Assembly: GCA_963664115.2 (NCBI GenBank)
Contig: CAXWPJ010000012.1
Coordinates: 1-64,000 of the forward strand
Direction of reading: 5' to 3'
Origin: Terriglobia bacterium
Lineage (GTDB): Bacteria > Acidobacteriota > Terriglobia > 20CM-2-55-15
Length of the DNA: 64,000 nucleotides
The position numbers and the translations under genes were made by a program. Below are positions 4,290 through 39,340 of this stretch, one piece after another (the stretch's first letter is position 1; every line of letters starts with the position of its first letter). The notes beneath the pieces were generated by a model. That model saw only the letters and a list, made by a program, of their open reading frames with translations. It was not told the DNA's origin and made no database searches.

Positions 4290-4346
4290 TGCGGTGTTCT
4301 TTTGCCCCAGCAGCCCTGAAATCCATTCTCACTGCCTGATAAATCC

Positions 4347-5588
4347 TGCCGGCTCAATCGGTCGATGCAACACATGCGTTAAATCGTTCGGCCGGAGTCT
4401 GAAACCCCAGCGTTTGACGAGGCCGTCTATTGAGCTTCGCTGCAATCATATCCAGATGCTGCTGAGAGTGAACGGATAAGTCTGTTCTTTTCGGGAAATA
4501 GTGTCGAAGCAGGCCGTTCGTGTTTTCATTCGAGCCCCGTTGCCATGGACTTCTCGGATCGCAAAAGTAGACGGCAATGTCGGTGGCCAGAGTGAACCGT
4601 TTGTGATCGGCCATCTCCAGACCGCGATCCCAGGTCAGTGATTCGTAGAGTTCCCTTGGTAGTTGATGCGCGTGTTCGATCAACGCGTTGATGACGGTTT
4701 CGGTTTTCTTGTTAGAAACTTTTGCCAGCATCACATAACGGGAGTGACGTTCGACCAGAGTGGCGATGTAGGAGTTGTTCGAACCCGCTATCAGATCCCC
4801 TTCCCAATGACCGGGGACGGCACGATCTTCGACCGAAGCCGGGCGCTCACGGATCGAGACCATGTCTTCGATTTTTCTCTTTCCATGGCCTTTCCGGCTC
4901 GCTTTTGCGGATCGGCGGATCGTGCGTCCCGAGCGCAGATACTGAACGAATTCTTTCTTCAAAGCCCCGCGGGCCTGGATGAAAAGGCTGCGATAGATCG
5001 TCTCGTGGGACACGTGAAGCGACTTGTCGTCCGGGTATGTGTACTTGAGCCACCCGGCGATCTGTTGGGGCGCCCAGTCGTCGGCCAGCTTCTCTTCAAC
5101 CAGTTGCCGTAGTCGCGGACACCGGGAAAGACAACACGGCTTCCGACGATGCGCACGTCCCCAGGCCCGCTGATCCGCAACCGACGCTCGATAGTTATCA
5201 TCGCCCCCGTTGCGGGCAATCTCCCGGCTCACTGTCGAAGGTGCACGACCGAGTACGAGCGCAATCGAGCGGATCGATCGTCGGGCTGCAATGCCTCTGG
5301 AAATCTCCTCGCGTTCGGCCAGACTCAGCGCCCGCGCCGAACGACAACGCGGGCGCGGCCGGATGCCTCCATAGACGGCCAGTTGCCCGTGAATTGTCGA
5401 TCCCCCTCGATCCAGTACACGTCCGATCTCTTTAGTCGATTTCCCTTCCTGCCACAGTTTCCATATCTTCACGACCTCGGCTGCTGTGAACCATCGCCGC
5501 TTCCTATACGTCTTCTTCTTTCGTTTCTTGGGCATACACTTCACCCCTCCTTTCATGTGAAGTGTTGCATTGACCCCTTGAGATCACC
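4347..5588 (-). mobile_element. IS30-family element
   Basis: 26-bp imperfect IRs ending in ATGCAACA; 2-bp duplication CC. Confidence 0.88.
4354..5535 (-). CDS. IS30-family transposase
   Basis: SHETIY, GHWEGDLI, WDRGLEM, PWQRGSNENTNGLLR; ATG at 5535 after GGAGG. Confidence 0.93.
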   Translation of the reverse strand: MPKKRKKKTYRKRRWFTAAEVVKIWKLWQEGKSTKEIGRVLDRGGSTIHGQLAVYGGIRPRPRCRSARALSLAEREEISRGIAARRSIRSIALVLGRAPSTVSREIARNGGDDNYRASVADQRAWGRAHRRKPCCLSRCPRLRQLVEEKLADDWAPQQIAGWLKYTYPDDKSLHVSHETIYRSLFIQARGALKKEFVQYLRSGRTIRRSAKASRKGHGKRKIEDMVSIRERPASVEDRAVPGHWEGDLIAGSNNSYIATLVERHSRYVMLAKVSNKKTETVINALIEHAHQLPRELYESLTWDRGLEMADHKRFTLATDIAVYFCDPRSPWQRGSNENTNGLLRHYFPKRTDLSVHSQQHLDMIAAKLNRRPRQTLGFQTPAERFNACVASTD

Positions 5589-5846
5589 CCTCTTGTCGGA
5601 CGTTGAGATTTCACAATTTCAGTCAGCATCAACCGACTCCATCGAGTCATTCCCAAAAAACCAACAACTTGAAACCAAAGCGGTCGCGAGTGGGCCTGAA
5701 GTGGATTACGTGCTGTCAGAGCCGTTGAAGTGCCCCAGGTGCGCGGGAGAGATTAGCGAGGAGACGTTGGTGGAGTGGGAATAAAAAGCGGCGGTGATCC
5801 CGGCGAACACGACGATACTTGGCCGGGTGCGTCCTACACACCCCGG

Positions 5847-6227
5847 CTAAGCGCTTGCGGGGCGGGCAGCCGCCATGCCCCCGACAGCTTCGGACTCGTC
5901 GGTCTCAACGTCGAAAATCGCACTCAACCGGGTGATGTCCAGCAACTCCCGAACTCTTTTCGTCGGATTCAGGAGTTTCAGTTGCCCCTGGTTGTTTTGA
6001 AGAGTCTCGTAAACCTCGACCAACGATTCCAACCCCCGGCTGTCGATGTAGTCGAGCTCCGCCATGTTCAATATGAGGCGGGGATCATCGGACTCGATGA
6101 ATTGTCGAACAGCTCCTCGAAACCCGTCGATCGTAGTTCCGCTCTGAAGACGGCCGGCCAAGTCCAAGATGGTTATGGGGCCAGCCTTGCGGATCCGGAC
6201 GGATAAGCGTTCCTTGGTCTCTTTCAT
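5847..6227 (-). CDS. STAS-domain anti-sigma factor antagonist
   Basis: LNMAELDYIDSRGL motif; GGAGG RBS before ATG 6227. Confidence 0.85.
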   Translation of the reverse strand: MKETKERLSVRIRKAGPITILDLAGRLQSGTTIDGFRGAVRQFIESDDPRLILNMAELDYIDSRGLESLVEVYETLQNNQGQLKLLNPTKRVRELLDITRLSAIFDVETDESEAVGGMAAARPASA

Positions 6228-6665
6228 TGCACCTCCTGGCAATCCGTGGCATCAGCCTTGCGGGCCGTTAAGGGCTTTGTGTGACACCCTTGAATATCAT
6301 AGTGAAATAGCCACGTCAGGTTTGTTCTGTCAAGTAAATACGGCACCGTAAGTCCAGTCAGGCTCTTCTTTCGTCAAGTCGTGGCCGAACTGCGTACAAT
6401 CTCCGCATGCCCCTCCCCATTTTCCGGTTTCAGGTCCCGGAATCCGCGCAGGGTAGTCTTCGCGATAGAGTGGCGCCCCGTTTCCAGAAAAGTTGACTTG
6501 CACAATCGCTGTTCCACACGGCAGTGCGGGCAATCAAGCCCCAATCGAAGCACGACAGTTTACGTTCAGAATCTTACGCATCCATTTGCTCTCCGTGGGA
6601 TTGGCTTGTCAGACTGCCGCTTCATCCAGTGGGTGATGTTCGCAAACAAGGGGTGATAGGGGCCA

Positions 6666-9600
6666 CTAATTCAACGGCCCTTTGATCACGCGAATGCGGT
6701 TGTTTCGCGTGTCGGAGATGAACACGTTCCCGGACAAATCGACGGCGACGCCTTTGGGGAGGTGAATGCTGGCTTCCGTTCCGACGCCGTTGTCGCCCGA
6801 AAAGGTCGAGCCCCCGTCGCCCGCGATTGTTTCTATGGTCCCAGTCTGAGAATCGACCCGGCGAATCCGGTTGTTCACGCTGTCGGCGATGAACAGGTTG
6901 CCGGCCGAATCTACTGTGACATCAAATGGTTTGCTCAGGAGCGCGTCGACCGCTCGCCCCCCGTCCCCGGCGAACCCTTCGAAAAACCCCCCGGTGCCGG
7001 CGACCGTCGCGGTTTCCAGCGTCGCCAGATCGATTTTGACGACGGTGCTGTTTCCGAAATCCGCCACAAAGAGCTGGTTGCGGAGTCTATCGATTGCGAT
7101 TCCCAAGGGGCCCTCACCCGCGAGGTTGTCGCTCAGGTCCAGGACCACGCTGGTGGCACCGGCCGTGTCGACCTTCATCACTTTATCGGTTATCGCATCG
7201 GCGAAATAAATGTTGCCGTTCGCGTCCAGGTTCACACTGACGGGTTGTGAGGAACCGAAATTTTCGCCCGCCACATCGACAATGGTGGTCAGAATTCCGG
7301 TGTTCACATTCACTTTCTGAATCTGGCCGGCCACAGTATCGGCGATGTAGATGTTCCCGCCGCTGTCTGTGGCGACATCCTCGGGAAATATCAGGCTGAA
7401 CTCCATGGCCGGCACGCTATCCATGAAACCGGAGCCAGCGAGATTCAGGGCACCGCGGCCCGCTAGGGTAGTAATGAGTCCGGTCCCCAGGTCGACCTTC
7501 CGGATTCGGCTCACGAATCGGTCCGCGATAAGGAGCGATCCATCTGGCGCGATTGTGATCCCGCCGGGAGAAAAGAGACGGGCCGCCCATGCCTGCTGGC
7601 CATCACCCAGGGGCAGACTACCGCCGGCATACTCCGTGACCTCGGTCGAGCTGTCGATCCTCAGTATTCTCGAGCTGAACTCACCCGTTCCCTGAGCGGG
7701 AGCATCGGAGACAAACAAGTCTCCGCTGCTGTCTACGGCGAGTCCTTTCGCAAACGTTGGGAATTCAAACTCACCCGACAGTACCGTCGTGACGAGGCCG
7801 TCCCCAAACCGCACGATACCCGCCGCCGCCACGAAAACGTCGCCTTCGGGCGACAGCGCCAGACCGAGCGGTTCCGAGATCCCGAATTCCGTCGCTATGC
7901 CGTTCGTCACCGAGCGCGTGGTGATGCGTTCACCGTTACCCAACACGGTGGAGATCACGCCGGTTGCATCGACCGTTCGGACGCGGAGATTGTCGGTGTC
8001 GGAAATGAGCAGGTTGCCGTCACGGTCCAGGCCAACCGCCCGCGGCCCGTTGAGACTCGCGCTGGCGGCCGGCCCGCCGTCCCCGGAAAAACCGGCGGCG
8101 CCGTTGCCGGCGACCGTCGTGATGATCCCGGTTTCCACATCCACTTTTCTGATGCGATGATTGCCGGTATCGGCGATGATCCAGTCGCCGTTCTGATCGA
8201 CCATGATTCCGAGGGGCCAGCTCAGACGTGCGACGACAGCCAGGCCCGCATCGCCGCTCAAGCCGAAGCTTCCGAGCCCGGCGACAGTACTGATCAGACC
8301 GGTCGACAGGTCCACCATCCGGATCCGATTGTTGCTGCTGTCGGCGATGAGCAGATTTCCTCTCCCGTCCAATGCCAGTCCCCAGGGCTTATTCAGCTTT
8401 GCGGCCACCGCCGGTTCCCCATCGCCGGAGAATCCCTCCAACCCCGTACCAGCAACCGTCAGGATGATTCCGGTTCGTCTGTCGATTTTCCGGATTCTGT
8501 GATCATCGGGATCGGCGACATAGAGGTCGCCGGTGGAATCGAAAGCAATGCCATACGATCTCCACAGGAGGGCGGACTCCGCGGCAGATCCGTCGCCCGA
8601 GAAAGAACTACCTCCGGCTATCGTCGTGATGTAACCGACGGGCAACTGATCCAACGAAACCGGCTCGACCAGCAACGCACTCTGGGTAAGCCCACCTCGA
8701 CCCTGGACCGTCAGGGTGGAACGTCCACTTGGAAGAGCGGGGGAGACAAACACCAGCGTCTGGCTGTCGACGAATTGGACAGCAATCGTTACGCCGGCAA
8801 CGAAAACCGAGGAATCCGGAGCAAAGTTCCGTCCCGTGATGGTCACCGTTGCACCGCCCTGGACGCTGATCTGTGGCGGGGTGATGGCGGTGATTTCGGG
8901 CTCGGCGAAACGGATCTCTTGAGCAACTCGGTCTGTCTCCGCAACCAACAGTCGACCGCTCTCGGTGATGGAAAGGCCGCGGGGGCTCTCGAAGGTTCCC
9001 GGCTGTGCGGTCTGGACCAGACTGCCATTTGTCAAAACCGTCCGGACGCTGCCGGATGTCCGTTCGCTGACGTGAATGTTGCCAAACGCATCGACGCTGA
9101 CACCTGTCGGCGTGGTGAAGTTGAGGGGAACACCCGCAATAATGTCGCTTGCCAATTTCGCGACCTCGGTCACTGCGGCAACGGAACCCGACGTACCCCC
9201 GGTCAGTGTTTCGACCAGTCCGGCTGCGGTCACTCGACGGATCAGCCCGTTCGCTGTGTCCGCGACGACGACCCGAATCTCTGGCGGGGGATCCCCTCTA
9301 GCTTCGCGGGCAAGTTGTTGCGCTGTGGTCTCCGATTCAATCGCGATTCCGGTGGGTTGGTTGAATCGGGCGTTGCTTCCCTGCCCGTCCGCTGAGCCGG
9401 GTTGCCCGGCGCTGCCCGCGATGGTTTCCACTTCTCCGGTCACCAGGTTGATTCTTCGGATCGTGTGGTTATCTTTGTCGGCGACCCACAAGTGTCCCCG
9501 GTTATCCAGCACCACCCCCTGGGGATTGTTGAACCCGGCCTGATCGGACGCACCGTCCAGACTGCCCGCCGTCCCGGTCCCCGCCAAGGTCGCGGATCGC

Positions 9601-10996
9601 CCGTTCGGTCCCGGTGCAATCGTCCGAATCACATGATTGGCCGCATCGCTGATGTAGAGATCTCCTCGGGCCTGATCCAGTGTCAGAAACGCCGGACTGG
9701 CAAACTCGGACTGGAGTCGCAGATCGTTCTTCAGTCCCGACCGTTGTCTCTGTCCCGCATACACCTCCGGGGTCTGCGACAAACTCTCGACCCGTACCAC
9801 GGTGTGATCTGCCGTCGAGGCCAGATACACCCGTCCAGCCAGATCCTGTGTGATACCGGTCCCGAACGCTCCCGACACGCCCGACTCGATCCCAACGACG
9901 GTGATCGTCGCCGTCGCCACGGTGTCTCCACTCTGAATCGTTAAGGTCGAAAAACCCCGCTGGTTCCCCGTAATCTGTCCACTACCGGTGATCGTCGCGA
10001 CCGTCGTGTCCAGACTCGTGAACGTGAAACCCATGTCGTCTCGTGCTTTGCCGGTGCTGTCGAGGGCCAGGATCCGTGGCCGGACCGTGTTGCCTTCGTT
10101 GATGGTGACTTCCGTGGTCGGGGCATTGGTCACCGAGTCCCGCAACGAAATACTCGACACCGTTCCGGCGTCTCCGGGAAACAATCGTTTCCCTTCGTTT
10201 CCTGCAAAGTCGAAGGTGAACTGGTCTGCGGTTTCTCCGGCCAACGGCACGGTCATCGGTGACCCGTTTGCTTCGTAGAACTCCACACCCACTTCCGACG
10301 CCTCACCGTTAAGGAACACCATCCGTGTCTCAAACCCGCTCCCGATGACAATCGTGGAAAACACTTTCATCGCTGCGGTCTGGGGTTGGGTCAGATCCGC
10401 TACCGGAAGCACTGCCATGATCAACTGCTCTCCCGTCAATTGCAGCGTGAGGGGTATCACCGCGACCGGACTCTGAATCTCAATCAGCCCGTTGTATCCG
10501 TTTACCATGCTGGGGAACAGGTCGTGGGCCATCTGTAACAGATGACCTCCGGGAGGAATCTCGCGGCTGACCCGCTCCTGTTCCTCTCCGAACCGGTTCT
10601 GGAGGATGAACTCCACCTCCACAGACTGGATCCCCCGGTGGGCTAGGGCCACCACGATCTGGCGCCCCCCGCTGTGGTCCACCGAAATCCGTGCCCGGGT
10701 GGTCTCCCGCGCCTCTCCCATGCCGGCCTCGGTCACCAACCCGTCTCCATTCCACAGTTGCACGACCGCGCTTGCCGTCGGTGTTGGCCCGACTTCCGGC
10801 GTCACCCGCGCATACCCCAGCGCCAGCGCATCCCCCCTCAGTTCGGCCCGGTACACCCCGTGCGGCGCGATCTGATAGGGTGCCTCCGAAGCCTGCCCCC
10901 CGTCCCAGTCCACCGCCATTGGAGTTCCGTCTGATCCTGCCAGCCGGATCCGACCGGAGACGCTCTCCTCACCCGGGTTGATGAGCATCAACTGGG
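6666..10996 (-). pseudogene. Large NHL-repeat (teneurin-like) surface protein with Ig-like and IPT/TIG domains, 5'-truncated by IS3
   Basis: Many AGxG...GDGG...PxGxAxD...IADxxNNRIR repeats; PEITAITP...VTITGRNF IPT motif; frame begins at the IS3 end and lacks a signal peptide. Confidence 0.8.
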
Positions 10997-16351: not shown

Positions 16352-17062
16352 TTCTCAATGTCCGGTCGAGTAGACCCGGGGAATTTCACCCCGAGTCCCC
16401 CACAGAACCGTGCTTGAACCTCTCGATTCACACGGCTCTTGCCAGCCGTTCGCCGACCACCGGTGGGGGGCCGACACCCGATGAATCCGGCTCCTCCCGC
16501 TTGCGCGGTTGGCCAGTTCCAAAGAGCGAGCTGGCTCATCCCCTTCGCTCCCCTCCCATTACAAGAGGTTCATCACTACTACAGGATGATCCGCCCCTGA
16601 ACTCCGCATCCGTACTCTCGCCCTCGTGGTTCTGGCCACTTGTGGCTTCTCCGTTAGCATCGAAGTTCAGGTTCCCACGTTCCGCTCAACCGCCTCTTGG
16701 TAAGCTCAGGCCACCTCTCATGCCGGAGGCCACTCCGCCCGTAAACAGGTTCCGTCGGAGCTCGTCCCGCAGTATCTTCTCCCTGCGGTTTTGGCCATCG
16801 TCTTTAAATTTTTGACACTTCAACAGTGGTTCCCTTTCGGTCCTCTTCTTACCAGTCACCTGACCCAGTCATCGCCGGGCCTTTTCCTTCTGCGCTCACG
16901 ACCATGGCTTTTGACCACAGCCGCCAGAGGTGGTTTGAAACCGACGCCTGTACGCCGGCTCCGAGGGGCCCTCCCTCATCAGTTGAGTAGTTACGCACTC
17001 GATGACCTTGCGGCCCCCGAGCACTCGTGGCACACAGAAGATGATTTGTCAGGACTTGACCT
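16352..17062 (-). repeat. dif-like site S2, interrupted by group II intron
   Basis: TTCTCAATGTCCG|intron|AGAA-GATGAT-TTGTCAGGACTTGACCT on + strand. Confidence 0.8.
16365..17035 (-). ncRNA. ORF-less group II intron, copy 1 (671 nt)
   Basis: 5' GTGTG; domain V GAGCCGTGTGAATCGAGAGGTTCAAGCACGGTTC with CCG/CGT triad region; domain VI ending CTACTCGAC; no RT ORF. Confidence 0.88.
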
Positions 17063-17068: not shown

Positions 17069-17385
17069 TCAGGGCACCGGCACCCGTTCCTTCAGCTCCT
17101 CGGTCCAGTTCAGGACGACGTTGATTTGGGGGAGGGCTGCTCCGGCAGTACCCGTACCATCTAAGGGGAGCGCGACGAGAAGTCGTTGGTCGTCGGGGGG
17201 TAACGGCGTAGTTTCTATACGCCCCTTGCACATAGAACCCCTGGATCGGGAGCGGACGCTCGGTTCCAAATGCAAACGGACCATCGGTTGTAATATCAAC
17301 AGCCGCCAACTGCCCATTGGGTTTCAAGAAGAATAGTTCATCCCCATCGGCTGACCACTGAGGATCTTGTCCTTCCTCCTGGTTG
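17069..17385 (-). pseudogene. 3' remnant of kinase-TolB gene (frameshifted)
   Basis: PQWSADGDELFF...YAVTP / DDQRLLVA...INVVLNWTEELKERVPVP* in two frames. Confidence 0.75.
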
Positions 17386-18906: not shown

Positions 18907-18926
18907 CAGGACTTGAGAATGGATAT
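18907..18926 (-). repeat. Half/degenerate dif-like site
   Basis: CAGGACTTGAGAATGGATAT matches the arm and flank at 36562-36581. Confidence 0.5.
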
Positions 18927-19474: not shown

Positions 19475-20199
19475 TTCTCAACGTCCGGTCGAGTAGACCC
19501 GGGGAATTTCACCCCGAGTCCCTCACAGAACCGTGCTTGAACCTCTCGATTCACACGGCTCTTGCCAGCCGTTCGCCGACCACCTCACGGTGGGGGGCCG
19601 ACACCCGATGAATCCGGCTCCTCCCGCTTGCGCGGTTGGCCAGTTCCAAAGAGCGAGCTGGCTCATCCCCTTCGCTCCCCTCCCATTACAAGAGGTTCAT
19701 CACTACTACAGGATGATCCGCCCCTGAACTCCGCATCCGTACTCTCGCCCTCGTGGTTCTGGCCACTTGTGGCTTCTCCGTTAGCATCGAAGTTCAGGTT
19801 CCCACGTTCCGCTCAACCGCCTCTTGGTAAGCTCAGGCCACCTCTCATGCCGGAGGCCACTCCGCCCGTAAACAGGTTCCGTCGGAGCTCGTCCCGCAGT
19901 ATCTTCTCCCTGCGGTTTTGGCCATCGTCTTTAAATTTTCGACACTTCAACAGTGGTTCCCTTTCGGTCCTCTTCTTACCAGTCACCTGACCCAGTCATC
20001 GCCGGGCCTTTTCGGGCCTTTTCCTTCTGCGCTCACGACCATGGCTTTTGACCACAGCCGCCAGAGGTGGTTTGAAACCGACGCCTGTACGCCGGCTCCG
20101 AGGGGCCCTCCCTCATCAGTTGAGTAGTTACGCACTCGATGACCTTGCGGCCCCCGAGCACTCGTGGCACACAGAAGATGATTTATCAGGACTTGACGA
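19475..20199 (-). repeat. dif-like site S3, interrupted by group II intron
   Basis: TTCTCAACGTCCG|intron|AGAA-GATGAT-TTATCAGGACTTGACGA. Confidence 0.8.
19488..20172 (-). ncRNA. ORF-less group II intron, copy 2 (685 nt)
   Basis: Near-identical to copy 1 apart from a 4-nt and a 10-nt insertion and a few substitutions. Confidence 0.88.
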
Positions 20200-20290
20200 T
20201 CACTGAACCTCAGCGGCCGACTGCTCACTCAACCTTTGTGCGTAGTTGAGATGTCTGCGAACATAGCCTGTATTAACGGGAGAATCAGAC

Positions 20291-20545
20291 ATGAGTATTG
20301 ATCCTGTTCCCAAGATGTCCCCTCTGTGCCAATCCTTAACGAGAGACGGTCACACAGTGCAGATTGAAATCTTTCAAGGTGATTCCGGTAAGTGGATTCT
20401 CGAAGTCGTCGATCAGGTGGGCAATTCTACGGTCTGGGACGATCAGTTCGACACCGATCAACAGGCGTTGGATGAATTGCACAGGACGGTCGTGGAGGAA
20501 GGCATCGAATCTCTCATTGGTCTACCTTCGGATCGCGTACATTAG
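20291..20545 (+). CDS. Small acidic hypothetical protein between two dif-like sites
   Basis: 84 aa, GGAG RBS; WILEVVD.GNSTVWDDQF. Confidence 0.7.
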   Translation: MSIDPVPKMSPLCQSLTRDGHTVQIEIFQGDSGKWILEVVDQVGNSTVWDDQFDTDQQALDELHRTVVEEGIESLIGLPSDRVH

Positions 20546-20577
20546 GCTCTGGAGCGAGGTAAATCCACACAACCCGA

Positions 20578-20617
20578 TTCTCACGGTCCGCGAAGATGAT
20601 TTATCAGGACTTGACCT
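20578..20617 (-). repeat. dif-like site S4 (intact)
   Basis: TTCTCACGGTCCGCGAA-GATGAT-TTATCAGGACTTGACCT. Confidence 0.8.
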
Positions 20618-23257: not shown

Positions 23258-23354
23258 GTTTAAAGTGTGTCGCCGAAAATGCCGTCAAAAACTCGGTAAA
23301 GGATACTAAGGCAGGAAGTTAGGCGCTATCAAATTCTCAAGTCCTGAGAAACGA

Positions 23355-24603
23355 GGTGGTCTCAACAGATCGATGCAACACTGTACCTAAAAGGAGGAGG
23401 TGGAGTGTATGCGTAAGAAACGACGGAAGAAACAGAGTAAAGACCGGGTGCGGCGAGGCTACACACTCGCCGATATAGACGAGGTGTGGATTCGCTGGCA
23501 GCGGGGAGAGAGTCTGAAAGCGATCGGACGTGTGTTCGGAAAGGAGGGCTCTTCGGTTTATGGTCAGATCGCACCGTATGGTGGAATCTGTCCCAGGACA
23601 CGATGCCGCTCTAAGCGGGCGCTGACCCTCGCCGAGCGTGAAGAGATTTCCCGAGGCATTGCCGCCAAGGGATCGATCCGTTCAATTGCCGCCTCGCTGT
23701 CGCGTGCACCCTCCACAGTCAGTCGGGAGATCGGTCGCAATGGGGGCTATGATAACTATCGAGCGTTGGAGGCGGATGAACGCGCATGGGAACGGGCTCA
23801 CCGCCCGAAGAGATGTCGACTGATCCGCTATCCCAGCTTACGCGGGATCGTCGAAGAGAAGCTCCGGGAGGATTGGGCACCGCGACAGATTGCGGGTTGG
23901 CTGAAACGCGAATATCCAGACGACGAGTCACTTTACGTGTCACACGAAACGATCTATCGCAGCCTTTTCATCCAGGCCCGCGGGGCTCTGAAGAAAGAAC
24001 TGACACAGCATCTACGGACCAAACGCACGATTCGCCGGTCCCGGCATGCCAGTCGCAAAGGCCGGGGTGGCGGGCAGATCCCGGATCTGATATCGATCCG
24101 TGAGCGCCCGGCTTCGGTTGAAAATCGCGCGGTCCCCGGACACTGGGAAGGGGATCTCATAGCGGGTTCGAACAACACCTACATTGCGACATTGGTCGAA
24201 CGTTTCTCCCGGTACGTGATGCGGGTGAAGGTTCCGAATAAGGAAACCGAAACCGTCATCAACGCGCTGATCGAACACGCAGACAAACTCCCGACCGAAC
24301 TCTATAAAACACTGACCTGGGATCGCGGATTGGAAATGGCCAATCACAAACGGTTCACTCTGGCCACCGACATTGCCGTTTACTTTTGCGATCCGAGGAG
24401 TCCCTGGCAACGGGGTTCGAACGAAAACACGAACGGTTTGCTCCGACAGTATTTCCCTAAAGGTACGGACTTGTCGGTTCACTCACAGGAGCATTTGGAT
24501 ATGATCGCAAGGAAGCTCAACGGGCGACCTCGTGAGACGCTGGACTTCGCTAATCCGGCAGAGACATTAAACGCAGGTGTTGCTTCGACCGGTTGATCTG
24601 AAT
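23355..24603 (+). mobile_element. IS30-family element (diverged from the first copy)
   Basis: 26-bp imperfect IRs; 2-bp duplication GA. Confidence 0.88.
23409..24596 (+). CDS. IS30-family transposase
   Basis: Same motifs as 4354-5535. Confidence 0.93.
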   Translation: MRKKRRKKQSKDRVRRGYTLADIDEVWIRWQRGESLKAIGRVFGKEGSSVYGQIAPYGGICPRTRCRSKRALTLAEREEISRGIAAKGSIRSIAASLSRAPSTVSREIGRNGGYDNYRALEADERAWERAHRPKRCRLIRYPSLRGIVEEKLREDWAPRQIAGWLKREYPDDESLYVSHETIYRSLFIQARGALKKELTQHLRTKRTIRRSRHASRKGRGGGQIPDLISIRERPASVENRAVPGHWEGDLIAGSNNTYIATLVERFSRYVMRVKVPNKETETVINALIEHADKLPTELYKTLTWDRGLEMANHKRFTLATDIAVYFCDPRSPWQRGSNENTNGLLRQYFPKGTDLSVHSQEHLDMIARKLNGRPRETLDFANPAETLNAGVASTG

Positions 24604-24726
24604 GACATTGTCGGACGTTGAGAATTGGCGAGCTTCGAGTGTCGCCGTAAACAATTGAAAAAGAATGAGATAAGGTCCATTGGAGGCCAATCGAGGGACG
24701 GTAAGCGAAAGTAGGGCGGCGATGAG

Positions 24727-24994: not shown

Positions 24995-27088
24995 CTACTG
25001 AACCTCAAAAGCCTCCGGGACGTGAAAGGTCAGAACCGCGTTCAGAGTCTTATCGGTGACGATGACATTCTGATGCTCTATATCAAGCGCCACCCCCCGC
25101 CCGTCCTTCAGCACCCCATTGGGACCGCCGATGGTAAAACGGGGAGGCACTTCACCGTCGTCATAGACACTCCAGACACCCACGTAATCGAGGGCGTCGT
25201 GTCGGTCTCCACCGCTGATCTTGACGAAGATCATTCCGTTCTCTGAATTGATTGCCATCAGGCCGGTGCCCCTCCTGCCCACATCCTGAGGCACGGAAAT
25301 CACTCCGCGCGGTTGGGCTCTTCCTGAGGCCGTTCGGTCATAAATATGCAGTTGCGGGCCTCCTGAGACAACCAGTAGATTACGGACCGGATCGACGGCC
25401 ACCCGACCGGGCGTCTTGTCCAACTCCAGGATGCGCATGGGTGCGACATCCCCATTCGCCTCCCTCGGAAAGACCAGTATCCGGTTGTCACCGTGTCGTC
25501 CTGGAACGTAAATCTCGTCGTGGACCGGGTCCACCGCTACCGCATGTGTGTTTTTCAACTGCGTGCTGGGTCCCATTATTGTTCGAATCGGCGCCACGTC
25601 TCCGTCTGCATCGCCACTGAAGGTAAGGATGGCGAATGCAAAGAACTGAGGCACGATGATCTCGTCATGAATCGGGTCGTAGGCCATATCATGCATGGTC
25701 CGGGTAAAGAGCGTGTTCTGACCCGCGATTTCCCGTGTGGGCTGTGCTTCACCGTTCGCCAACCTGGCGAATGCCGCAACTTGCGGATGGCCCACTCAGT
25801 TGGCGACGAGAAGCTGGTCCCGTTTGGAATCGTAGGCCACCGTGTGGGCATTGCTCAGCATGGGCGACGGAGTGTCGGCCGGCCCGCTTCTGATCACCCT
25901 TTTCGGGGTTGCATTTCCTTCTGCGTCCAATTCGAAGACCGTCGCCGAATGACTTCCGAAGTTGGCCACCCAGAGCTCGTCATTCTCCAGGTCAATGGCG
26001 ATGCCGGTTGGATTCCGGATCATGGTCAGAGGGCCGCTGATCACCCGTAGAGGAGCCACATCCCCGTTGGCATCCGCGCTGAAGACAATGACTGAGTGCC
26101 CGGTGTCATTGGCAACAAAGATCTCCCCGCGATCGGGATGCACTGCCAGAGCGGTCGGCCAGTTCATCTGAGTCCTTGGGCCCTCAATGACACGCAATGG
26201 TGCGGTGTCTCCTTGAGCGTCCTTAGGGTAGACCGTGATTGAGGGAGGTTTAATCTTTCCTGATCCTGCGAAAGCACGGGCACGTCCGACCGGAAAATCG
26301 GATCGGTTGTGCCGGTCGTCGCCACCCCCGCCTTCTGACAGGGGCGGCCTTTCGTTGTAAGTGCCCCAGTTGGACACGAAGATTTCATCCCGCCGGGTGT
26401 CCAGGGCAATTCCATGAGGATCCGCCAACTGAGTGCTGCTGCCCTGAAGGATTCGGATAGGGCTATCCTCATCTTTGGCCTCTTTCTCGAACACCACCAC
26501 AGCGTGATCGTCTTGAATCGTGAGAAACAGCTCCTGCTCTTCTTCGTCGACCACCACTGCGAAGGTCGTGTGGGGAGTCCTCAACTTGCGCTTGGGCGCA
26601 ACGTTCCCCTCGGCGTCCCGGCCAAAGACCGGCATCCAGTTCATGGTGTCGTTATTGATTCCGTAAATGTCGCCGCTGGCGGGATCAACATAGACGCCGC
26701 AGGCATACTCAAGAAAAGTCTCCTCTCCCCCGATGATCCTCTTGGGTTCCGTCAATGTTGCCTGCGGAGGAGTATTGGAGAGGCGGTCATAGACAACCAG
26801 ATTGGAAACATTCTCCTCCGCGATGACGACTTCGTTACGGATCGGATCGACCGCAATACCCGCAAAACCGAAGTAGCGGTCCCTGACTATGGAGATGGGC
26901 TCCCTGTTCGCCACCGCTTCCCTGACTTCTTCGCTGGGGCGGGGTGGAGCCAGTGTTGTGCGGTCTCCCTGAGACTGCGGAGCAGTCGGGCCGGATAACA
27001 CCAGGCCGGTCGAAACCAGAAGGGCCGGAAGGAAGAGCAGTAACTTCTTCGGGCGGCGGCAGAATGAAGAGATCCAGCGAGCGGTCAT
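24995..27088 (-). CDS. Secreted multi-blade beta-propeller (NHL/YncE-like), paralogue A; in-frame TGA at 25796-25798, putative selenocysteine
   Basis: ORFs 25796-27088 and 24995-25795 are in the same frame, separated only by TGA; repeated PxRxIxGPxTxLxxPxGIAxD blades on both sides. Confidence 0.7.
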
Positions 27089-31189: not shown

Positions 31190-31373
31190 TCCCGCTCCAG
31201 AGTTCCAAGCAGGTCCGACATGGGACTGCTTGATTGGAAGGTGAAATCGCGTCTATGTCCGTCCATCGTCGACAAAGAGCGTGCAATGAACCCGGCTGAA
31301 GATATAGCATTGAATGGACGAGTCTAGAAGAACGTCTCACACGCTACTAACGAAGATAGCCACGGAGTTTAAA

Positions 31374-33569
31374 ATGATTCCTTGCAAGCCCCGGTCATCG
31401 ATTTTCGCTCGGAAAACGGCAGTGCTCACTATCTTTGCATTCTTGGCGACGATAGGAATTTTCACCGCTGGCGGGAGCCCGCAGCGATTGGAGCGAACAC
31501 AAACTTTTGGAACAGACCGCCTCCTATCCTTGGAGACTCTGCCGCAAGCGAATGGGGCGTTCTACCCTTCGGTTCCGGTCGGCGCATCCATAAACCTGTC
31601 GGCGGCGTTCGAGCAATCGGCGGTGCCAGCAGGCGAGGAGACGGCTTCCCGGGATCCGCTCCGGGTGATCCGCGATCCTTACCCCAGCTTCAGCTCGGTG
31701 GTGGTCGACATGGAGCGCGGTGAAGTGGTGGCGGGCGACGAGAACCTGTTCCAAGTCCTGGTGTACGACCGGCTTTCGAACACTCCGCCCCAGGCGACGC
31801 TGACCGAACCTCGTCGAGTGATTGCGGGTGATCAGACGGGACTCGAATTTGTTTGCGGCATGCACATGGATCAGTCCACGGGAGATATTTACGTCATTAA
31901 CGCCGATACTGCGGCGCAGATGCAAGTGTTTACCCGCTCACAGGAGGGCAATGTGCCGCCCTCGCGAGTGCTGAACACCGGCCACCGGATCAGAGGACGC
32001 GGCATCGCCGTCGATTCGGACAACAGAGAACTCTTCCTTGCCAGCCAGCACAACGCCGCGCTTGCGGTTTTCCGCCTCGATGCCGAGGAGAACGAACTGC
32101 CGATCCGCCTGCTCCAGGGCGACCGAACGCGACTGGCCAACCCTCATGGGATTGCTTTCGACAGCCAGAATGGCCTGGTCTACGTCAGCAACCATGGACA
32201 GGTATCGAGTCGGCCGGTGCGGGAGGCGGTGGAAGACCGGGACGACGTGCAGCCCAACGTCCCCCTGCCAAGAAGTATGGCGTTGCCGGGATCAGGCCGG
32301 TTCCTGCCGCCGTCGATCAACGTGTATCGCCGTACCGCCAGCGGCAACACACCGCCGCTGCGCGTGATCGAAGGACCCAGGACGCAGTTGAATTGGCCTG
32401 CGGGAGTTGCGATCGACGAGCGCCGAGGCGAGCTCTATGTCGCCAACGACACCGGTAATTCGGTGCTGGTGTTCCGCGCGGATGCATCGGGCGACGTGGC
32501 GCCTATCCGCGTGATCGAGGGACCCAACACTAAATTGGATGCCCCCGGGGGCGTGTTCCTGGATACCCGGAACAACGAACTTTGGGTCTCCAACTACGGG
32601 AATCACTCGCTGACCGTTTTCGCTCTCACAGCGGACGGCGACACCGCACCGCTCCGGCTGATCAGAAGCGGACCGGCCGACAGCCCGGCGCTGATGATCG
32701 GCAATCCGGGCGCTGTGGCCTATGACACAAAACGGGAAGAGATTCTGGTACCCAACTGAGTGGCCCATCCGCAGATTGCGGTATTCGCCAGGCTGGCGGA
32801 GGGCACAGATGGAATGACTCGAAGGATTGAGGGACAGCAGACTTTGCTGACCCGGACCATGCACGCGATCCACTACAACGAAGTTCGTGACGAGATCGTG
32901 GCGCCAAATCAGTTTGCGCAGGCCATCCTGACCTTCCGCGCCTCGGCCGTTGGGGAGGAACCGCCGATCCGTGTCATACAGGGCGATCGCACCCAGCTGG
33001 AAGGGTCGTCGGGCGTCGTAATCGACACCAAACACAACGAGATTATTACGGAGCGCAAAGTCTTCCCGATTGACGCGGACGGCAACGTCCCGCCGAGCCG
33101 AACGCTCGAGTACTCGGTCAGTGCCGTCGACATGGACAACGATCTTTACATCGGCACGCGCGGACGTGACGGCGGAACCCAGCTCATGATCTTTGACCGC
33201 AACTCTGACAGTGCCGAACCGCTGCGGGTCATCAGCGGACCGAGAACGATGTTGGTCAATCCGAGGAGGATTCGAGTCCACAATGGCTGGATCCTGGTCG
33301 CGCACGACGGGATCCAGACTGACAATCCAAACAACCTGTCTTTTGTCGGGATCTGGAGCGTCAACGACGAAGGCAACGTCCCGCCCCGCTGGACTTATGG
33401 TGGACCCAACGAGATGCTCGATAAGCCCCGCGGTGTCGATGTCGACCCGAAGCATCAAACAATCATCGTGACTGACAAGACGTTGAACGCTGTGTTGACG
33501 TACTATGCGCCGGAGATTTTCGGAGAACCCGGAACCGGGAGCCGGCGGGTTGAAGAGCCGGCGGATTGA
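31374..33569 (+). CDS. Secreted beta-propeller, paralogue B; in-frame TGA at 32757-32759, putative selenocysteine
   Basis: GGAG RBS then ATG 31374; ORF continues in frame after TGA (VPN*VAHPQ); colinear with paralogue A. Confidence 0.7.
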
Positions 33570-34168
33570 TCAGAGCACGCCGACCGCGAGTCGGCATTGG
33601 TGCCCGTGGAGGTTCTCTGGCGGGCTTGAGCGATTGCCAGCAATATGAAGTGTCCGGTCCTCGAGGATCCCCCGACTGGATCAGGAGGCCGTCGAAATGG
33701 TTCGCTCGTACACCTCCACGTAACGCGTGACGATCTTCACGCGACAGAATTTCACAATGCGCGTGCCCGCGGCCCGCCCCATGCCCAAGCGCAGTTCCCT
33801 GTCGCCCAACAGAGGATCCACAGCTGCCTGTATTATTTAACGTCAGTTTTGTATCGGAGATGGTCCGGCACCGACAGTGACAAAAAATGATGCCGGGGCA
33901 TGTCGGATAGAATGGTTTGAAGTGAGGCGCAGGCGCGGCCGGGAACGAGAAGACCTATGGGTTTTCAATCCATGGATTGGAGGCTGAATCGGGGAGACGC
34001 AGTGATGGTGGGGGGTGGTTGTAGCGGAAAATCACTGTCGATCGCCCGAGTGGGGTGGGTTGGATATAGCGAAAGGGCACTTGAGCACGCGTGTTTTTGG
34101 CGTCTGGACACACTTCGGCGATGCAGTCTGGACGACCGCGTTGGGCTGGAATTGTTGAGTGTCGATGG

Positions 34169-35353
34169 CTACGCACTATCCTGAATTGGAACCTCCTTTG
34201 ATTCGAGAGCGGCGAGCTGTGCCGCGGTTAATCGCTCGACCAGACGCATCGGTCCCCGGCAGATCGGACACGGTGCCGGTGGGGTAGCACCCGCCTCGGA
34301 CTCCGGCTCGGTGATGGACTCCTGACCTAAGAGGTGCCGACAGAGTTCCAGCATCGTCTTGCGTTTCCGATTTGCCATCCATCCGTAGTACCGGATGCGG
34401 GGAAAGCCTTTCGGTAAGACATGCAGGAGGAATCGACGGAGGAACTCTTCGGGTTGGAGTGTCATTGTTCGTGGACGGCCATTGTGGCGATAGTCCTTCC
34501 AGCGGAATGTAACGCCGGATTGGTTGACATCGAGGATGCGATGATTCGAGATGGCCACCCGATGGGTATAGCGGGCCAGGTACTGAAGGACGTGTTGGGG
34601 TCCGCCGAATGGTTCTTTGGCGTACACCACCCAGTTCCGATCCTTCAGATCGTCGAGGAACCGCTCGAAGGTGGATTCGGTGGCCAGTTCCAGACACTCC
34701 CCATGGAAAACGAGCGTCTTGTTTCCGAAGGCTTCGGCTAAACCGTCGAGAAACTTTTCTCTGAAAACGTAGCTGAGCTTCTGGACCGGGAGGAAGAAGT
34801 CGGTCCGGGAGGAGTGGATCCACCGGTCGTGATCCGGGGACAGTCCGCCACCGGGAACCACACAGTGGATATGGGGATGGCGTTGCAGGGTTTGTCCCCA
34901 GGTATGCAGGATGCTGAGGAATCCGATCTCGCCGCCCAGATACCTGGGGTTTCGGGCCACTTCGATCAGCGCCGCCGCACTGGTTCGGAACAGAAGCGCA
35001 TAGAGCACCTTCTTGTTCTGCCAGATCAATGGGATCAACTGATGGGGCAGGCTGAAGACCAGATGGAAGTATCCGATCGGTAGCAGTTCCTGTTGCCGTT
35101 TCTCGACCCAGGTGTTCCGCGCATTGGTCTGGCACTTCGGGCAGTGGCGGTTCCGGCACGAGTGGTAGACCAGCGTTTGGTGGCCACAGTGGTCGCATCG
35201 TTTCCGGTTCCCGCCCAGTGCGGCGGTCCGGCAATGGGTAATCGCGTTGAGGACCTTGACCTGGGGCCAGGCCAGCGCTTTCAAATACCGTTGTCGGAAT
35301 CGGTCTCCGACGATGCGAATCACGTCAGCCACCTCAAAGGGTGGCCGGCTCAC
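34169..35353 (-). CDS. IS91-family transposase
   Basis: Protein identical to 133-1317. Confidence 0.92.
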   Translation of the reverse strand: MSRPPFEVADVIRIVGDRFRQRYLKALAWPQVKVLNAITHCRTAALGGNRKRCDHCGHQTLVYHSCRNRHCPKCQTNARNTWVEKRQQELLPIGYFHLVFSLPHQLIPLIWQNKKVLYALLFRTSAAALIEVARNPRYLGGEIGFLSILHTWGQTLQRHPHIHCVVPGGGLSPDHDRWIHSSRTDFFLPVQKLSYVFREKFLDGLAEAFGNKTLVFHGECLELATESTFERFLDDLKDRNWVVYAKEPFGGPQHVLQYLARYTHRVAISNHRILDVNQSGVTFRWKDYRHNGRPRTMTLQPEEFLRRFLLHVLPKGFPRIRYYGWMANRKRKTMLELCRHLLGQESITEPESEAGATPPAPCPICRGPMRLVERLTAAQLAALESKEVPIQDSA

Positions 35354-36231
35354 TTCTTTGGATCCTTAACCACAGGTGAAAGCTTCAACTGATCCAGAGG
35401 ATTGCGCGCGGTTCGAAGATGGCGCCGGGACAGTTGCAGGTAGAGCGTGGTATCGCTGAGCCGACTGTGTCCCATCAAGAGCTGGATCGTGCGCAAGTCG
35501 GTCCCGGACTCTAGCAGGTGGGTCGCGAAGCTGTGCCGTAGCGTGTGCGGACCGATCCTCTGGGTCAGACCCGCACGCTGGGCGGCCCCATGAACGGCAT
35601 GCCAGACCACCTTGTCCGAGATCGGAGCATCCGTGCCCCGGTGTCCTGCACTGCTGTGAAACAGATAGACCTCGGGCTTTTTCAATAACCAGTACCCCCG
35701 TAACGCTTCAAGCAGATTGCGACTCAACGGGACATCCCGGTCCCGACGCCCTTTCCCGTCGCGGATATGCACCAGCATCCGTTCACTGTCGATGTCGGCC
35801 ACCTTCAACACGGCGGCTTCGGCCCGTCGCATCCCGGTCCCGTAGAGCACCATCAGGATGGCCCGGTGCATCGGACTCAATGCGGCTTGGATCAACCGGC
35901 GGACTTCAGACGGACCCAGGATCGTGGGTAGTTTCCGCGCACTCTTGGGCATGGGCAGATCATCCAGTTCCAGATCCGCACGTCGCAGCAGCACCTTCTT
36001 GTAAAGGAATCGTATCGCCGAGGTCCGCATCCCGACCGTACTCGCCGCCAGCTTCTTTTCGGTCAGTAAGTACAGCTGAAAACGCCGTACCTCCTCGGCT
36101 CCCATCAAGGCCGGAGACTTGCCGAAGTAATTCGCGAATTGTTCGACTGCCAGAATGTAGCCACGACTCGTGGCCGGGGAATAGTTCCGTCGCTGGAGTT
36201 CCTCCAGCATCCGTTCTCGTAGTTGGGTCAT
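35350..36231 (-). CDS. Tyrosine recombinase with N-terminal SAM-like domain
   Basis: YGTGMR, GKG, HTLRHSFATHL, GH, catalytic Y. Confidence 0.92.
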   Translation of the reverse strand: MTQLRERMLEELQRRNYSPATSRGYILAVEQFANYFGKSPALMGAEEVRRFQLYLLTEKKLAASTVGMRTSAIRFLYKKVLLRRADLELDDLPMPKSARKLPTILGPSEVRRLIQAALSPMHRAILMVLYGTGMRRAEAAVLKVADIDSERMLVHIRDGKGRRDRDVPLSRNLLEALRGYWLLKKPEVYLFHSSAGHRGTDAPISDKVVWHAVHGAAQRAGLTQRIGPHTLRHSFATHLLESGTDLRTIQLLMGHSRLSDTTLYLQLSRRHLRTARNPLDQLKLSPVVKDPKK

Positions 36232-36427
36232 AAGACACCTCCTTATGACCGCTACTTTATGGGACAGACTCTATCTGCTGTACGCCGACTCCGAGCGCCT
36301 GCGGCTTAGTTCTAACCCCCTAACCGGAATAGTGGCTCTTGCTCAAGGACCCAGTCGCCTTTTGGGGAACCTGAAATGATCCGGGCAACGGTTACTCCCG
36401 AAAAACGCCGTTTCGTTTACCGATCCG

Positions 36428-36461
36428 ATCTCAACAGCCCAGAATTCGGCTTCTGTCAACC
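36428..36461 (+). repeat. Variant dif-like site with XerD-like second arm
   Basis: ATCTCAACAGCCCAGAA-TTCGGC-TTCTGTCAACC. Confidence 0.4.
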
Positions 36462-36534
36462 AGCCCTAGCTTTAGAACGAGTGGGTTGGAAGCAATAATT
36501 GGAAGCATCCAGATCAAACGCGCCATGCCGAAAG

Positions 36535-36574
36535 ATCTCAACGTCCGAGAAGATGATTTGTCAGGATTTGAGAA
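36535..36574 (-). repeat. dif-like site S6 (intact)
   Basis: ATCTCAACGTCCGAGAA-GATGAT-TTGTCAGGATTTGAGAA. Confidence 0.82.
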
Positions 36575-36607
36575 TGGATATCAAGGCTGTTGAGGCTAGA
36601 AACTTGT

Positions 36608-37150
36608 CTACGGGACCGGCACCCGCTCCTTCAGTTCTTCAAACGAGTTCAGGACGATGTTGATTTGAGGGCGGGCGGTCTCGGTTTGTTCAGTGGGAAT
36701 GGTAATCAGGAATCGCTGGCCGTCTGGCATGACGTCGTACTGTCGACCAAGCATGATAATCGAAATCGGAAGAACTTGGGGATTACTGAATTCGAACGCT
36801 GGCGTCGTACGGACAGCAACCGCAACTAGCTCAGAACCCCTCCGATAGAATAACTCCGTTCCATCCCTAGACCAGATTGGATCGTCGGCTCCGCCGCGTG
36901 AAATCTGATGGATTCCTCCAGCCAGCGGAAATGGCTGGACAAATATCTCCTCACCAGCCCCTTGGTTTCCGCCTCTTGCAGATTCGTAGGCCACCCACTG
37001 CCCTGCTGGTGAAAACGCGGCAACGTCTGATCCCTCTTCAGCTATAAGGACCTCGGTCGTGTCGTCGTCCAGATGCAATATCTCGATATGATTTAGGGTA
37101 CTGAGCGCAAGATCCTGACCATCGGGGGTCCATGAGGTCGGGATGCCATT
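36608..37150 (-). pseudogene. 3' remnant of kinase-TolB gene
   Basis: FSPAGQWVAY...PIWSRDGTELFY...INIVLNSFEELKERVPVP*; no kinase domain upstream. Confidence 0.78.
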
Positions 37151-37353
37151 TACTTCTGCTGTCGTTAAGCGTTTCGGTGCACAGATCGTGAAACTGGATT
37201 GGAACGGCGTGGTCCTGGGGGTGCTGGGAGAATTCGGGCGAAGGCCTGGGCGAGTTTGGCGAAGCCCACTATCTGACCGTGGACAGCCAGCAGAGTATCT
37301 AAGCGGCCGACGTGGTCAACCGCCGGGTCCAAAAATTTCTTCGGCGCTGACTC

Positions 37354-37740: not shown

Positions 37741-37779
37741 AGCTCTACCTCCTTGGAACCGGCGGCATACCGGTTCCGC

Positions 37780-38568
37780 CTATCTTTCGCGAACAACCGG
37801 TGGATCCTCCGGGTACTTCGAGGGGAAGACCGAGAGGATCTCCTGCGCGGCCTCGGAATTGCAATTCCAGGGCAGGGTCAGGGGATTATCGCTCCGCTCG
37901 GACTCGACAACGAACTCGATAGGCTCCACGAGGAAGACAGGATCTTCAGTTCTCACCTCGCGCCGCAGCCTGTCCCCATCTAGTGAGTAACGCTCCGTAA
38001 CGCGTTTCTGCGTCGACGACGGTACGTTGAAATCGCTATCGAGCCCTGCCGGATCGAACGCAAACCGCGTCGTCTCGACGATGAGCTGATTTCTCTCATA
38101 CCGCCCGGTCGAATATCCGGACGTAAAGAACTCGTTAACGCGCGGCTCCGGATGAGCGTGGCCTTCCAGCCAGACCGTACGCACGACGTCGTCCTTCTCA
38201 TAGGTCAGAATCACGCGGTCCGCCAGTTGACGGATCTCGAAAAGGTACGGGTCGGTAAACAGGTGCGGGATGGGCGTGGGCCAACAATCATATTTCGGAG
38301 CTGCAACCTCGTCGAACGCGGCCCGGAAAGCCTTCGCTCGGGCCGTCAGCGCGGGGTGATCGGGCCCAACGGAAGTGCATTGGTTCGGCCCGACACACAG
38401 CCCACGGTTCCAGACCCCGTCCAGCCCGGAAATTGCAGAGGAGCGCTCCTGTGACAGTCCCGGCCCGGGAGCCCCCAGAAGTGTCAGCAGAAACAGACAG
38501 AGCGCAATAGCAAGTCGCTTGGGCATCGGGCACCTCTTGGATCCAATTTCCTCAGGCGAGGATGCCAT
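37780..38568 (-). CDS. Secreted hypothetical protein, paralogue of 61366-62253
   Basis: LDGVW, C.P, GYSTGRYE...LIVET, VTERY, EDP motifs shared with that ORF. Confidence 0.75.
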   Translation of the reverse strand: MASSPEEIGSKRCPMPKRLAIALCLFLLTLLGAPGPGLSQERSSAISGLDGVWNRGLCVGPNQCTSVGPDHPALTARAKAFRAAFDEVAAPKYDCWPTPIPHLFTDPYLFEIRQLADRVILTYEKDDVVRTVWLEGHAHPEPRVNEFFTSGYSTGRYERNQLIVETTRFAFDPAGLDSDFNVPSSTQKRVTERYSLDGDRLRREVRTEDPVFLVEPIEFVVESERSDNPLTLPWNCNSEAAQEILSVFPSKYPEDPPVVRER

Positions 38569-38735
38569 AACCCTACCCGAACTTTCAAAGAATATAAAAC
38601 TGCAGTACCTACTTCGCCTTGATCTCGGACGCGATCTTGACGCCTTTTTCCGGGATTCTCTGCCAGGGCGGCTTGGGTCCCCAGAAAATCACCGTCATCA
38701 GGTAGAGCAGCCATCGGGCCAGCCAGGACCGGGAG

Positions 38736-38998
38736 GGCACTGTCAAGTTAAGTGGCGCAATGCAGACGGATGCGATCGGTGTCGGCCCAACCGAAACGGA
38801 TTCTGAATCACTCCATGAATGTGCAGGAATCGCTGGGCCTGCTCTGCTGATTTGAAGCGTCGTATCAGTCAGTCGTTTCCTCCCCCGCGTCGGCTGATGC
38901 GAGACCTCGGCTCGATTGTTTGCGTATCGGTTGGTGTCATGCGTCACAGTGGGCATGACTTCTCGATGCGCGACACGGTAACTTCCCAGCTTGTCGGT
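38736..38998 (-). pseudogene. IS6-family transposase remnant with terminal IR
   Basis: TDKLGSYRVAHREVMP...NNRAEVSHQPTR; IR GGCACTGTCAAGTTAAG. Confidence 0.8.
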
Positions 38999-39123
38999 GC
39001 ACTCACAGGAGTATCTGAACCAGGTTGCGCGCCAGATCAACGAACGGCCCCGCAAGACGCTGGACTTCGCTAATCCGGCAGAAACCTTAAACGCAGGTGT
39101 TGCATCGACCGGTTGATCCGAAT
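38990..39123 (+). pseudogene. IS30 3'-end remnant followed by half dif-like site S7 (39128-39144)
   Basis: LSVHSQEYL...RPRKTLDFANPAETLNAGVASTG*, IR, then CACA-TTGTTGGACACTGAGAA. Confidence 0.8.
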
Positions 39124-39340
39124 CACATTGTTGGACACTGAGAATTAAATTGGTTCAATCAGGTCTGTTCAGTCGAGGTTTACTTGCAGTTGGGGTACTT
39201 AGCGGTCTCCAGGTCCATAAAGTCCACCATGCGTCTCTGCGGGTGACTTTCTGGTGAGTCCAGCCGGACGGGATTGCAGCAACGGGGTACAGCAGAGCAA
39301 TCCGGGCTCGGTTGTTTCCGCTCCGGGTATCGAATTGTAT

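Follow-up and report, generated by a model that had tools for sequence, protein, structure and literature searches.

Dif-like sites bordering gene modules in a Terriglobia chromosome, and a candidate recombinase

The window analysed here, by which we mean the whole stretch of 64,000 nucleotides at the start of contig CAXWPJ010000012.1, belongs to a Terriglobia bacterium whose genome (G000; 4.9 Mb in 12 contigs, cited below by C-numbers) was compared with related genomes of Terriglobia (Acidobacteriota). Between positions 4326 and 39144 it carries copies of a short site, two arms around a spacer, interspersed with insertion sequences (IS), group II introns and intact or broken genes for a serine/threonine kinase. 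It is very likely that this site is a module border of the tyrosine-recombinase type. More specifically, the repeat marks the borders of swappable modules and is probably the double-stranded target of a dedicated Xer-like recombinase encoded on contig C5, a reading to which we give roughly an even chance.

Sites and their partners in the window

The class of a site is set by the three spacer bases beside its left arm, ATC or GTC in class C and ACG in class A. The features of the window are as follows (ORF, open reading frame).

4326..5609 (+): class C site with spacer ATCCTC, split by an IS30 element; left arm 4326-4342, IS30 4347-5588, right arm 5593-5609
4354..5556 (-): transposase of the IS30 element inserted in that spacer
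16352..17062 (-): class C site (ATCATC), its right arm split by a group II intron that lacks an ORF (16365-17035)
17069..17317 (-): C-terminal kinase remnant that stops immediately short of the left arm at 17062
18907..18919 (-): partial left arm, interrupted by the left end of an IS110/IS1111-type element that is truncated here and measures 1.46 kb when complete
19475..20199 (-): class C site interrupted by another copy of the group II intron (19488-20172)
20200..20577: small module flanked by direct class C sites and holding an 84-aa ORF (20291-20545, +) that belongs to no Pfam family
20578..20617 (-): intact class C site immediately past the kinase stop codon
20624..23257 (-): intact serine/threonine kinase with a beta-propeller, 877 aa; the ends of its gene form the shell of many modules
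23303..23332 (-): match to a sigma-70-like promoter, by consensus only, located between the class A site and the start of the kinase gene
23334..24624 (+): class A site with spacer ACGACA, inverted relative to the array and split by IS30 (23355-24603)
33838..36311 (-): IS91 element that encodes a tyrosine recombinase of its own (35350-36231), inside the array; not taken as the cassette enzyme
36394..36461 (+): two decayed related sites with spacers ACGCCG and TTCGGC, absent from the initial annotation
36535..36574 (-): intact class C site
36608..37150 (-): C-terminal kinase remnant upstream of the left arm at 36574
38990..39144 (+): remnant of an IS30 end followed by a right arm (39128-39144), the final site before the core genes

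An initial annotation, made from the letters of the window, had described a dispersed family of such sites, and every position that it listed does carry the motif. What it took for pairs of separate sites are four single sites, each split by IS30 or a group II intron, and its consensus matches the window only once at up to three mismatches (with no match in 100 shuffles) because most of the sites are split or partial. Its observation that the core half of the window is free of sites is borne out by our scan, in which no arm reaches score past 39144.

Across G000 a matrix scan finds 163 intact sites, against none in a reversed-genome control, together with 149 orphan half sites; half-site matches number 494, against 18 in the control. 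The 6-bp spacer noted in the window holds genome-wide, its length being kept in 146 of the 161 left arms that pair with a right arm 0–15 nt away. The supposed free variability of its sequence does not hold, as ATCATC fills 123 of the 163 spacers and the sites fall instead into the two classes given above, with a minor, decayed class of spacer GTCGGC. The core geometry is 11-6-11 (28 bp), extended to 17-6-17 in the genus of G000, and the arms of a site differ by one inserted base. Nor are the sites spread evenly in the manner of repetitive extragenic palindromic (REP) elements: 144 of the 163 lie within 6.5 kb of another, where random placement gives a mean of 57 and a maximum of 74. In all, the DNA organised by the site into arrays makes up more than 400 kb of the chromosome.

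Several mobile elements are aimed at the site. The families counted here were picked because they were first met at sites, and an IS3/IS481-like control element, which was picked likewise, has its ends at a site in only 1 of 25 cases. By comparison, all 25 IS30 ends found sit in the centre of the spacer (the window copies, which belong to NF033563, show a 2-bp target duplication, CC or GA, in mid-spacer), one IS110-like element abuts the spacer with all 8 of its left and all 7 of its right ends, a second element, of IS110/IS1111 type, has all 11 left ends and 8 of its 9 right ends within an arm, and the three group II intron copies all occupy one position.

The transposase of the first IS110-like element, with its 15 abutting ends (locus L332, C12:167990-169126), scores 122 bits against a family cut-off of 140 and has a weak TIGR-Tas match; its bridge RNA should encode the site. 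The ORF-less intron (RF00029 and RF01999, about 670 nt) interrupts the same base of the site in its three copies, the two in the window and one at C12:563816-564490. It might be mobilised by a distinct group II intron that carries a reverse transcriptase (C11:21207-22529) and whose 3' flank resembles the outer end of the left arm.

Array layout, distribution and module exchange

The two classes obey a rule of orientation. Neighbouring class C sites of G000 point in the same direction in 72 of 74 cases, and neighbouring A and C sites in opposite directions in 32 of 32. In the regions fetched from G002 (107 sites) and G003 (66 sites) the corresponding counts are 50 of 52 and 19 of 19, and 27 of 27 and 17 of 17. 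The arrays of G000 comprise 97 direct modules with a median length of 1463 bp, of which 46 of 96 hold a single ORF, and 57 inverted segments, bounded by left arms in 29 cases and by right arms in 28, with 21 empty linkers of 17–19 or 108 bp among them; 40 additional segments involve broken sites. Most modules lie between direct sites that share a spacer. The longest ORF of a module lies on the site strand in 49 cases and on the opposite strand in 29, and 18 have none; modules bring their own promoters, and their genes face either way. A bias in replication strand was considered and set aside, as by inspection arrays occur on both strands relative to GC skew. At four places (C2:320059, C12:509720, C6:136336 and C9:934271) the outer end of a class A left arm is duplicated in short tandem together with 5–7 flanking bases.

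The site is by no means private to one strain. The other four genomes of the genus all have its 34-bp form (9, 79, 41 and 1 copies), and two sister-genus genomes have a single copy each, which makes 7 of the 41 genomes searched. The 28-bp core pattern with spacer GTCGGC is found in 32 of 401 Terriglobia genomes, against 6 with a backward control, and the bases left free in that pattern agree with the G000 consensus. Two genomes of another family, G761 and G519, carry arrays of the same layout, including C/A pairs 57–58 bp apart, with C-C neighbours direct in 10 of 11 cases and A-C neighbours inverted in all 17; a further 6 pairs involve other spacers. Once the seed spacer is removed, 24 of 25 other-family spacers start with GTC or ACG, and their last triplets take 12 forms. 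The exact site has 11 matches in metagenome contigs and none in the viral contigs searched, and part of the kinase stretch is contained in sequencing runs labelled as sponge metagenome. Our searches of the openly accessible literature found no description of such sites in Acidobacteriota, and the portions of PMC3025954 and bioRxiv 542381 that were covered describe neither the site nor the recombinase family discussed below.

Do the modules move? Sites that share a left flank can continue into unrelated right flanks, and vice versa. Among low-copy, near-identical repeats in the arrays, 17 of 40 ends fall inside a site in both copies, although sites make up about 3% of array bases; three of these 17 are intron copies and three have an IS110 element in one of the sites, which leaves 11. 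Two modules at more than 99% identity have different neighbours at both ends, one of 692 bp (C2:317264-317955 and C12:161232-161923) and one of 1327 bp (C2:264297-265623 and C6:43763-45089). If a recent swap pair is defined by one flank at least 97% alike and the other unrelated, there are 13 such pairs among 155 sites of G000, none among 107 of G002 and none among 66 of G003. The near-identical repeats of G002 and G003 that end in sites are insertion sequences, with the exception of one 337-bp pair at 97%. A comparison of G007 with G017 for an empty site finds the two loci diverging about 180 bp before the site.

Within the site, the outer three bases on each side move together with their flank, and the inner positions are unlinked: position 15 differs in 4 of 9 pairs that share the left flank, and position 26 in 5 of 8 that share the right. 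A crossover fixed in the spacer is therefore insufficient by itself, and both simple models, an attC-like crossover at one fixed outer position and an Xer-like crossover fixed in the spacer, conflict with some of the swap pairs. It had been asked whether breakpoints map to the 6-bp spacer; they do fall inside the site, without being confined to the spacer. Together with the clustering, they uphold the proposal that the chromosome carries a cassette system whose site is dif-like but non-canonical. We made no use of joints at sites in sequencing runs, including an IS30-free form of 23350-24605 in 3 of 4 runs, because short contigs break at the 34-bp core, the sides are only 20–35 letters long and the sites may be paralogous.

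Candidate enzymes and competing explanations

Host XerC/D, the integrase encoded in the window and an unlinked enzyme had all been named as potential recombinases. The window integrase (35350-36231) drops out: it is part of an IS91 element (33838-36311, and again at 1-1648 of the window) that occurs in six identical genome copies, always with the IS91 transposase, and it has no orthologue in the site-rich G003. Serine recombinases were likewise rejected, for none of the three in G000 is linked to arrays; the arms may bear some likeness to resolvase half-sites. The leading candidate is indeed unlinked to the window. Among 27 matches to tyrosine recombinases in G000, of which XerC and XerD alone are represented by orthologues in G002 as well as in G003, the one referred to here as the C5 recombinase (C5:52189-53139, 316 aa) is encoded on a different contig, between two inverted class A sites. 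It falls under every NCBIfam cut-off (60 against 267 bits in the case of XerS), and the catalytic R, K, H, R, H and Y are invariant in 11 aligned relatives.

The association of this family with the site extends beyond G000. Around 46 loci of C5 homologues, the set that remains after removal of two duplicates, site-like matches number 10 in 21,041 bp at distances of up to about 220 bp, against 10 in 98,640 bp farther away (p=0.0009); near other tyrosine recombinases there are 7 in 42,000 bp. A motif search blind to the G000 sites recovers the motif, with a score of 133 (41 loci) against 50 (33 control loci), and the exact spacer context AAGTCGGCTT is found four times near C5-family genes and never far from them. 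In G007, a C5 relative lies beside two full kinases and a site. Finally, recent swaps were seen only in G000, the sole carrier of the C5 gene among G000, G002 and G003.

As the enzyme of this system, the C5 recombinase would work by itself or together with host XerC, and DNA between two direct class C sites would be excised as a circle and could enter any further class C site. Homology would be checked at the three spacer bases beside the left arm, in which case an inverted class A site could not pair with a class C site and arrays would not be flipped. The enzyme would exchange one strand pair only and leave the Holliday junction to be resolved at another place in the nearly identical arms; this would explain both why inner positions are unlinked from their flanks and why homogenisation extends beyond the 28 bp. 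One-strand exchange that is resolved by replication, with poor XerD arms, is known for phage attP sites, as described in PMC9226527.

A number of observations weigh against assigning the site to this enzyme. The C5 gene was not found in G002, G003, G004, G761 or G519, and of these five genomes four are rich in sites; in G001 it is broken. Across genomes the co-occurrence of gene and site is not significant, in a test in which only five candidates per genome were scored (the gene occurs in 7 of the 32 genomes that have a GTCGGC-spacer site and in 48 of the 369 that lack it; p=0.13). Most C5 homologues have no clear adjoining site, the closest relatives that do have one possess arms nearer to the minor GTCGGC class than to classes C and A, and the C5 gene could be plain cargo. 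The 13 swap pairs are not independent, G000 has segmental duplications, and the right arm is almost a host-type XerC arm. Taking these points together, the chances that a dedicated C5 enzyme runs the site seem to us evenly poised; control by host XerC/D is possible though on the unlikely side, and other routes are rather improbable.

In the first of these alternatives, host XerC and XerD run the same cassettes through a site with a degenerate XerD arm, and the C5 recombinase is cargo or a helper. We regard this as unlikely, if worth serious attention. G000, G002 and G003 share no orthologous tyrosine recombinases other than XerC and XerD, and the right arm matches a Terriglobia dif XerC arm at 9.2 of 11 positions on average (best match, 277 sites), matches that of G000 itself at 8 of 11 and is nearly identical to that of family f7. 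A TLC phage attP is a poor XerD substrate and yet recombines, according to PMC9226527. The genome has a single canonical dif, at C2:108120, conserved in relatives and accompanied by xerC and xerD genes, so that the comparison with the true dif called for at the outset places it elsewhere, distinct from the array sites. It is the other arm that speaks against the host enzymes. A search of 201 Terriglobia genomes finds the XerD arm of dif conserved in 100, whereas at up to two mismatches it appears in none of 277 genus-level and in 2 of 76 class-wide array sites. The left arm is nevertheless strongly conserved, which argues that something binds it. This explanation also does not account for the site beside C5-family genes or for the missing recent swaps in G002 and G003. 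In five distant genomes a search for dif did no better than its control. At L282 (G021:C40:65648-65739), L286 (G017) and L290 (G002), a second dif-like site that does have a true XerD arm lies off or beside the main dif; these are possible integrations by Xer-exploiting elements.

It is improbable, in our view, that sites of old recombinase origin are now shuffled merely by homologous or slippage recombination over some 34 bp of near identity, aided by insertion sequences. The crossovers beyond the spacer, at positions 15 and 26, would fit such a process, as would the abundance of IS copies in the arrays, but it leaves unexplained the strict rule of class and orientation across families, the conserved 11-6-11 geometry and the existence of several independent site-specialised elements.

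Least probable, by a small margin, is a single-strand hairpin substrate, either REP-like for a Y1 nuclease of the RAYT type or attC-like for an integron or IS91-borne integrase: the site does fold, with bulged bases, pair 7-34 has a slight excess of pairing (237 against 228, p=0.001), a RAYT-like clade is common to all five genus genomes with one copy 300 bp from a site, three related IS91-integrase elements lie inside a left arm, and the window-type element has 4 of its 7 ends 25–32 bp from an arm, but the four most variable pairs show no covariation (15-26 is paired in 103 sites against 102.9 expected, n=277), so that the site is read as double-stranded, fold z-scores run from -1.3 to +0.8, the outer stem is missing in other families, no site lies near the Y1 genes of G001, G002, G003 and G004 (the G004 copy is broken), the IS91 integrase lacks a G003 orthologue, and the G000 integron integrase is 105 kb from the nearest arm, with none found in G003, G004, G007 or G017. 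The flanks of the RAYT-like gene have no common site.

The RAYT-like Y1 clade is differently placed in each genome. In G000 it forms two and a half tandem gene copies (C10:490039-494639; L127, L130) alongside a tRNA-like remnant and two genes that resemble a toxin-antitoxin pair. The integron integrase-like gene (C9:714590-715759) is followed by short co-oriented ORFs and is probably part of a separate, ordinary integron.

Proposed kinase shells and known systems

The cargo of the G000 arrays is diverse, with 590 ORFs in 395 clusters when transposases are counted in, and the dominant cargo gene is the serine/threonine kinase with a beta-propeller. There are 47 N-terminal kinase starts in G000, mostly truncated at scattered codons, and 102 C-terminal DNA remnants, 67 of which have a left arm directly behind them. 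Kinase tails precede 70 of 131 class C sites, with comparable shares in G001 to G003, class A sites stand before the kinase promoter, and remnants of the kinase gene end about half of the modules. Some copies are internal deletions that join the start to the end. Arrays of other families have no kinase shell.

Many modules are probably refilled kinase shells. New modules would arise in this genus when the interior of a kinase module lying between two sites is exchanged for foreign DNA, with the promoter, the start and the last codons of the kinase presumably staying behind as a shell. Over the kinase family (window 20624-23257, about 47 loci) the first 60 residues are 85–97% alike and the middle 30–45%, the last 14 residues are conserved, and the ends beside sites are homogenised.

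To our knowledge, dif modules have been published almost only for Acinetobacter, where they use host XerCD and are not singly excised. The parallels are close: in both systems dif-like 11-6-11 sites with one XerC-like arm bound one or a few accessory genes in chromosomal arrays, the spacer decides, in G000 presumably, which sites pair, and there are insertion sequences specialised for the sites (those of the IS1202 family are directed at xrs; bioRxiv 2022.12.17.520857); modules are also exchanged with breakpoints in the sites. The differences are no less clear. PMC13141974 has pdif sites alternating, with C and D modules that move in pairs, and PMC11705084 reports xrs cassettes found not to be excisable. 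Here there are 97 direct against 57 inverted segments, and the alternating, inverted layout with XerD arms that the pdif comparison had implied does not apply to an array in which C-C neighbours are direct and 0 of 277 sites has an XerD arm. Moreover, some 160 intact chromosomal sites compare with 22 on an Acinetobacter chromosomal island (PMC12907356), and G000 adds a two-class rule read from three spacer bases and a candidate enzyme of its own.

Integrons offer the other obvious comparison. Their attC sites form hairpins with a conserved core and are targeted by IS1111 elements and group II introns. Shared features are rows of co-oriented sites, about one gene per module, and targeting of the sites by IS110/IS1111 elements and group II introns; single excision of modules and arrays that outlive the enzyme would be further ones. 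Unlike attC, the site is short and of fixed length, shows no hairpin covariation and has no conserved attC core (position 33 is G in 46%); IntI is not found beside the arrays, and the promoterless genes running one way that are typical of integrons were not seen.

Other Xer systems are more distant. XerS/difSL and XerH/difH also place a site next to the recombinase gene, an arrangement absent at most C5 homologues, and the arms of difSL and difH likewise differ by one inserted base, as given in PMC5357621; those are single-copy sites for dimer resolution, whereas the present site is multi-copy in a genome with a separate canonical dif and XerC/XerD, and the C5 protein is far below the XerS cut-off. 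The CTX and TLC elements that exploit Xer (PMC9226527) have a degenerate XerD-side arm and provide precedent for one-strand exchange with limited homology and a junction resolved by replication, but they integrate at dif, and the array sites lie far from dif and recombine with one another. Compared with REP/REPIN sequences and their RAYT, there are no cognate repeats at the RAYT gene, no conserved hairpin and no spread among core genes.

Judged by these tests of membership, the system resembles both the Acinetobacter dif modules and the integron and is a member of neither. We would tentatively go further and suggest a Terriglobia analogue of the integron with a recombinase family of its own, in which double-stranded dif-like sites would carry a three-base direction code, single modules would be excised from among hundreds of sites, arrays would outlast a departed recombinase module and cassettes would be born when a kinase is hollowed out and refilled. 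The site recurs across a bacterial class and orders more than 400 kb of one chromosome into directly repeated modules. Were C5 the enzyme, a function would be assigned to a very large unassigned family of tyrosine recombinases (7,948 of 8,000 scored candidates), and a compact site-specific tool with a readable spacer code would be at hand. How gene cassettes are first made is an open question for integrons. The kinase shells provide a testable answer to the origin of such cassettes.

Among the remaining genes of the window, NHL-repeat proteins are encoded at 6666-10991, 25796-27088 and 31314-32759, one of them of 1441 aa, and 24995-27088 and 31314-33569 look like an inverted pair of paralogous genes around a TonB-dependent receptor.

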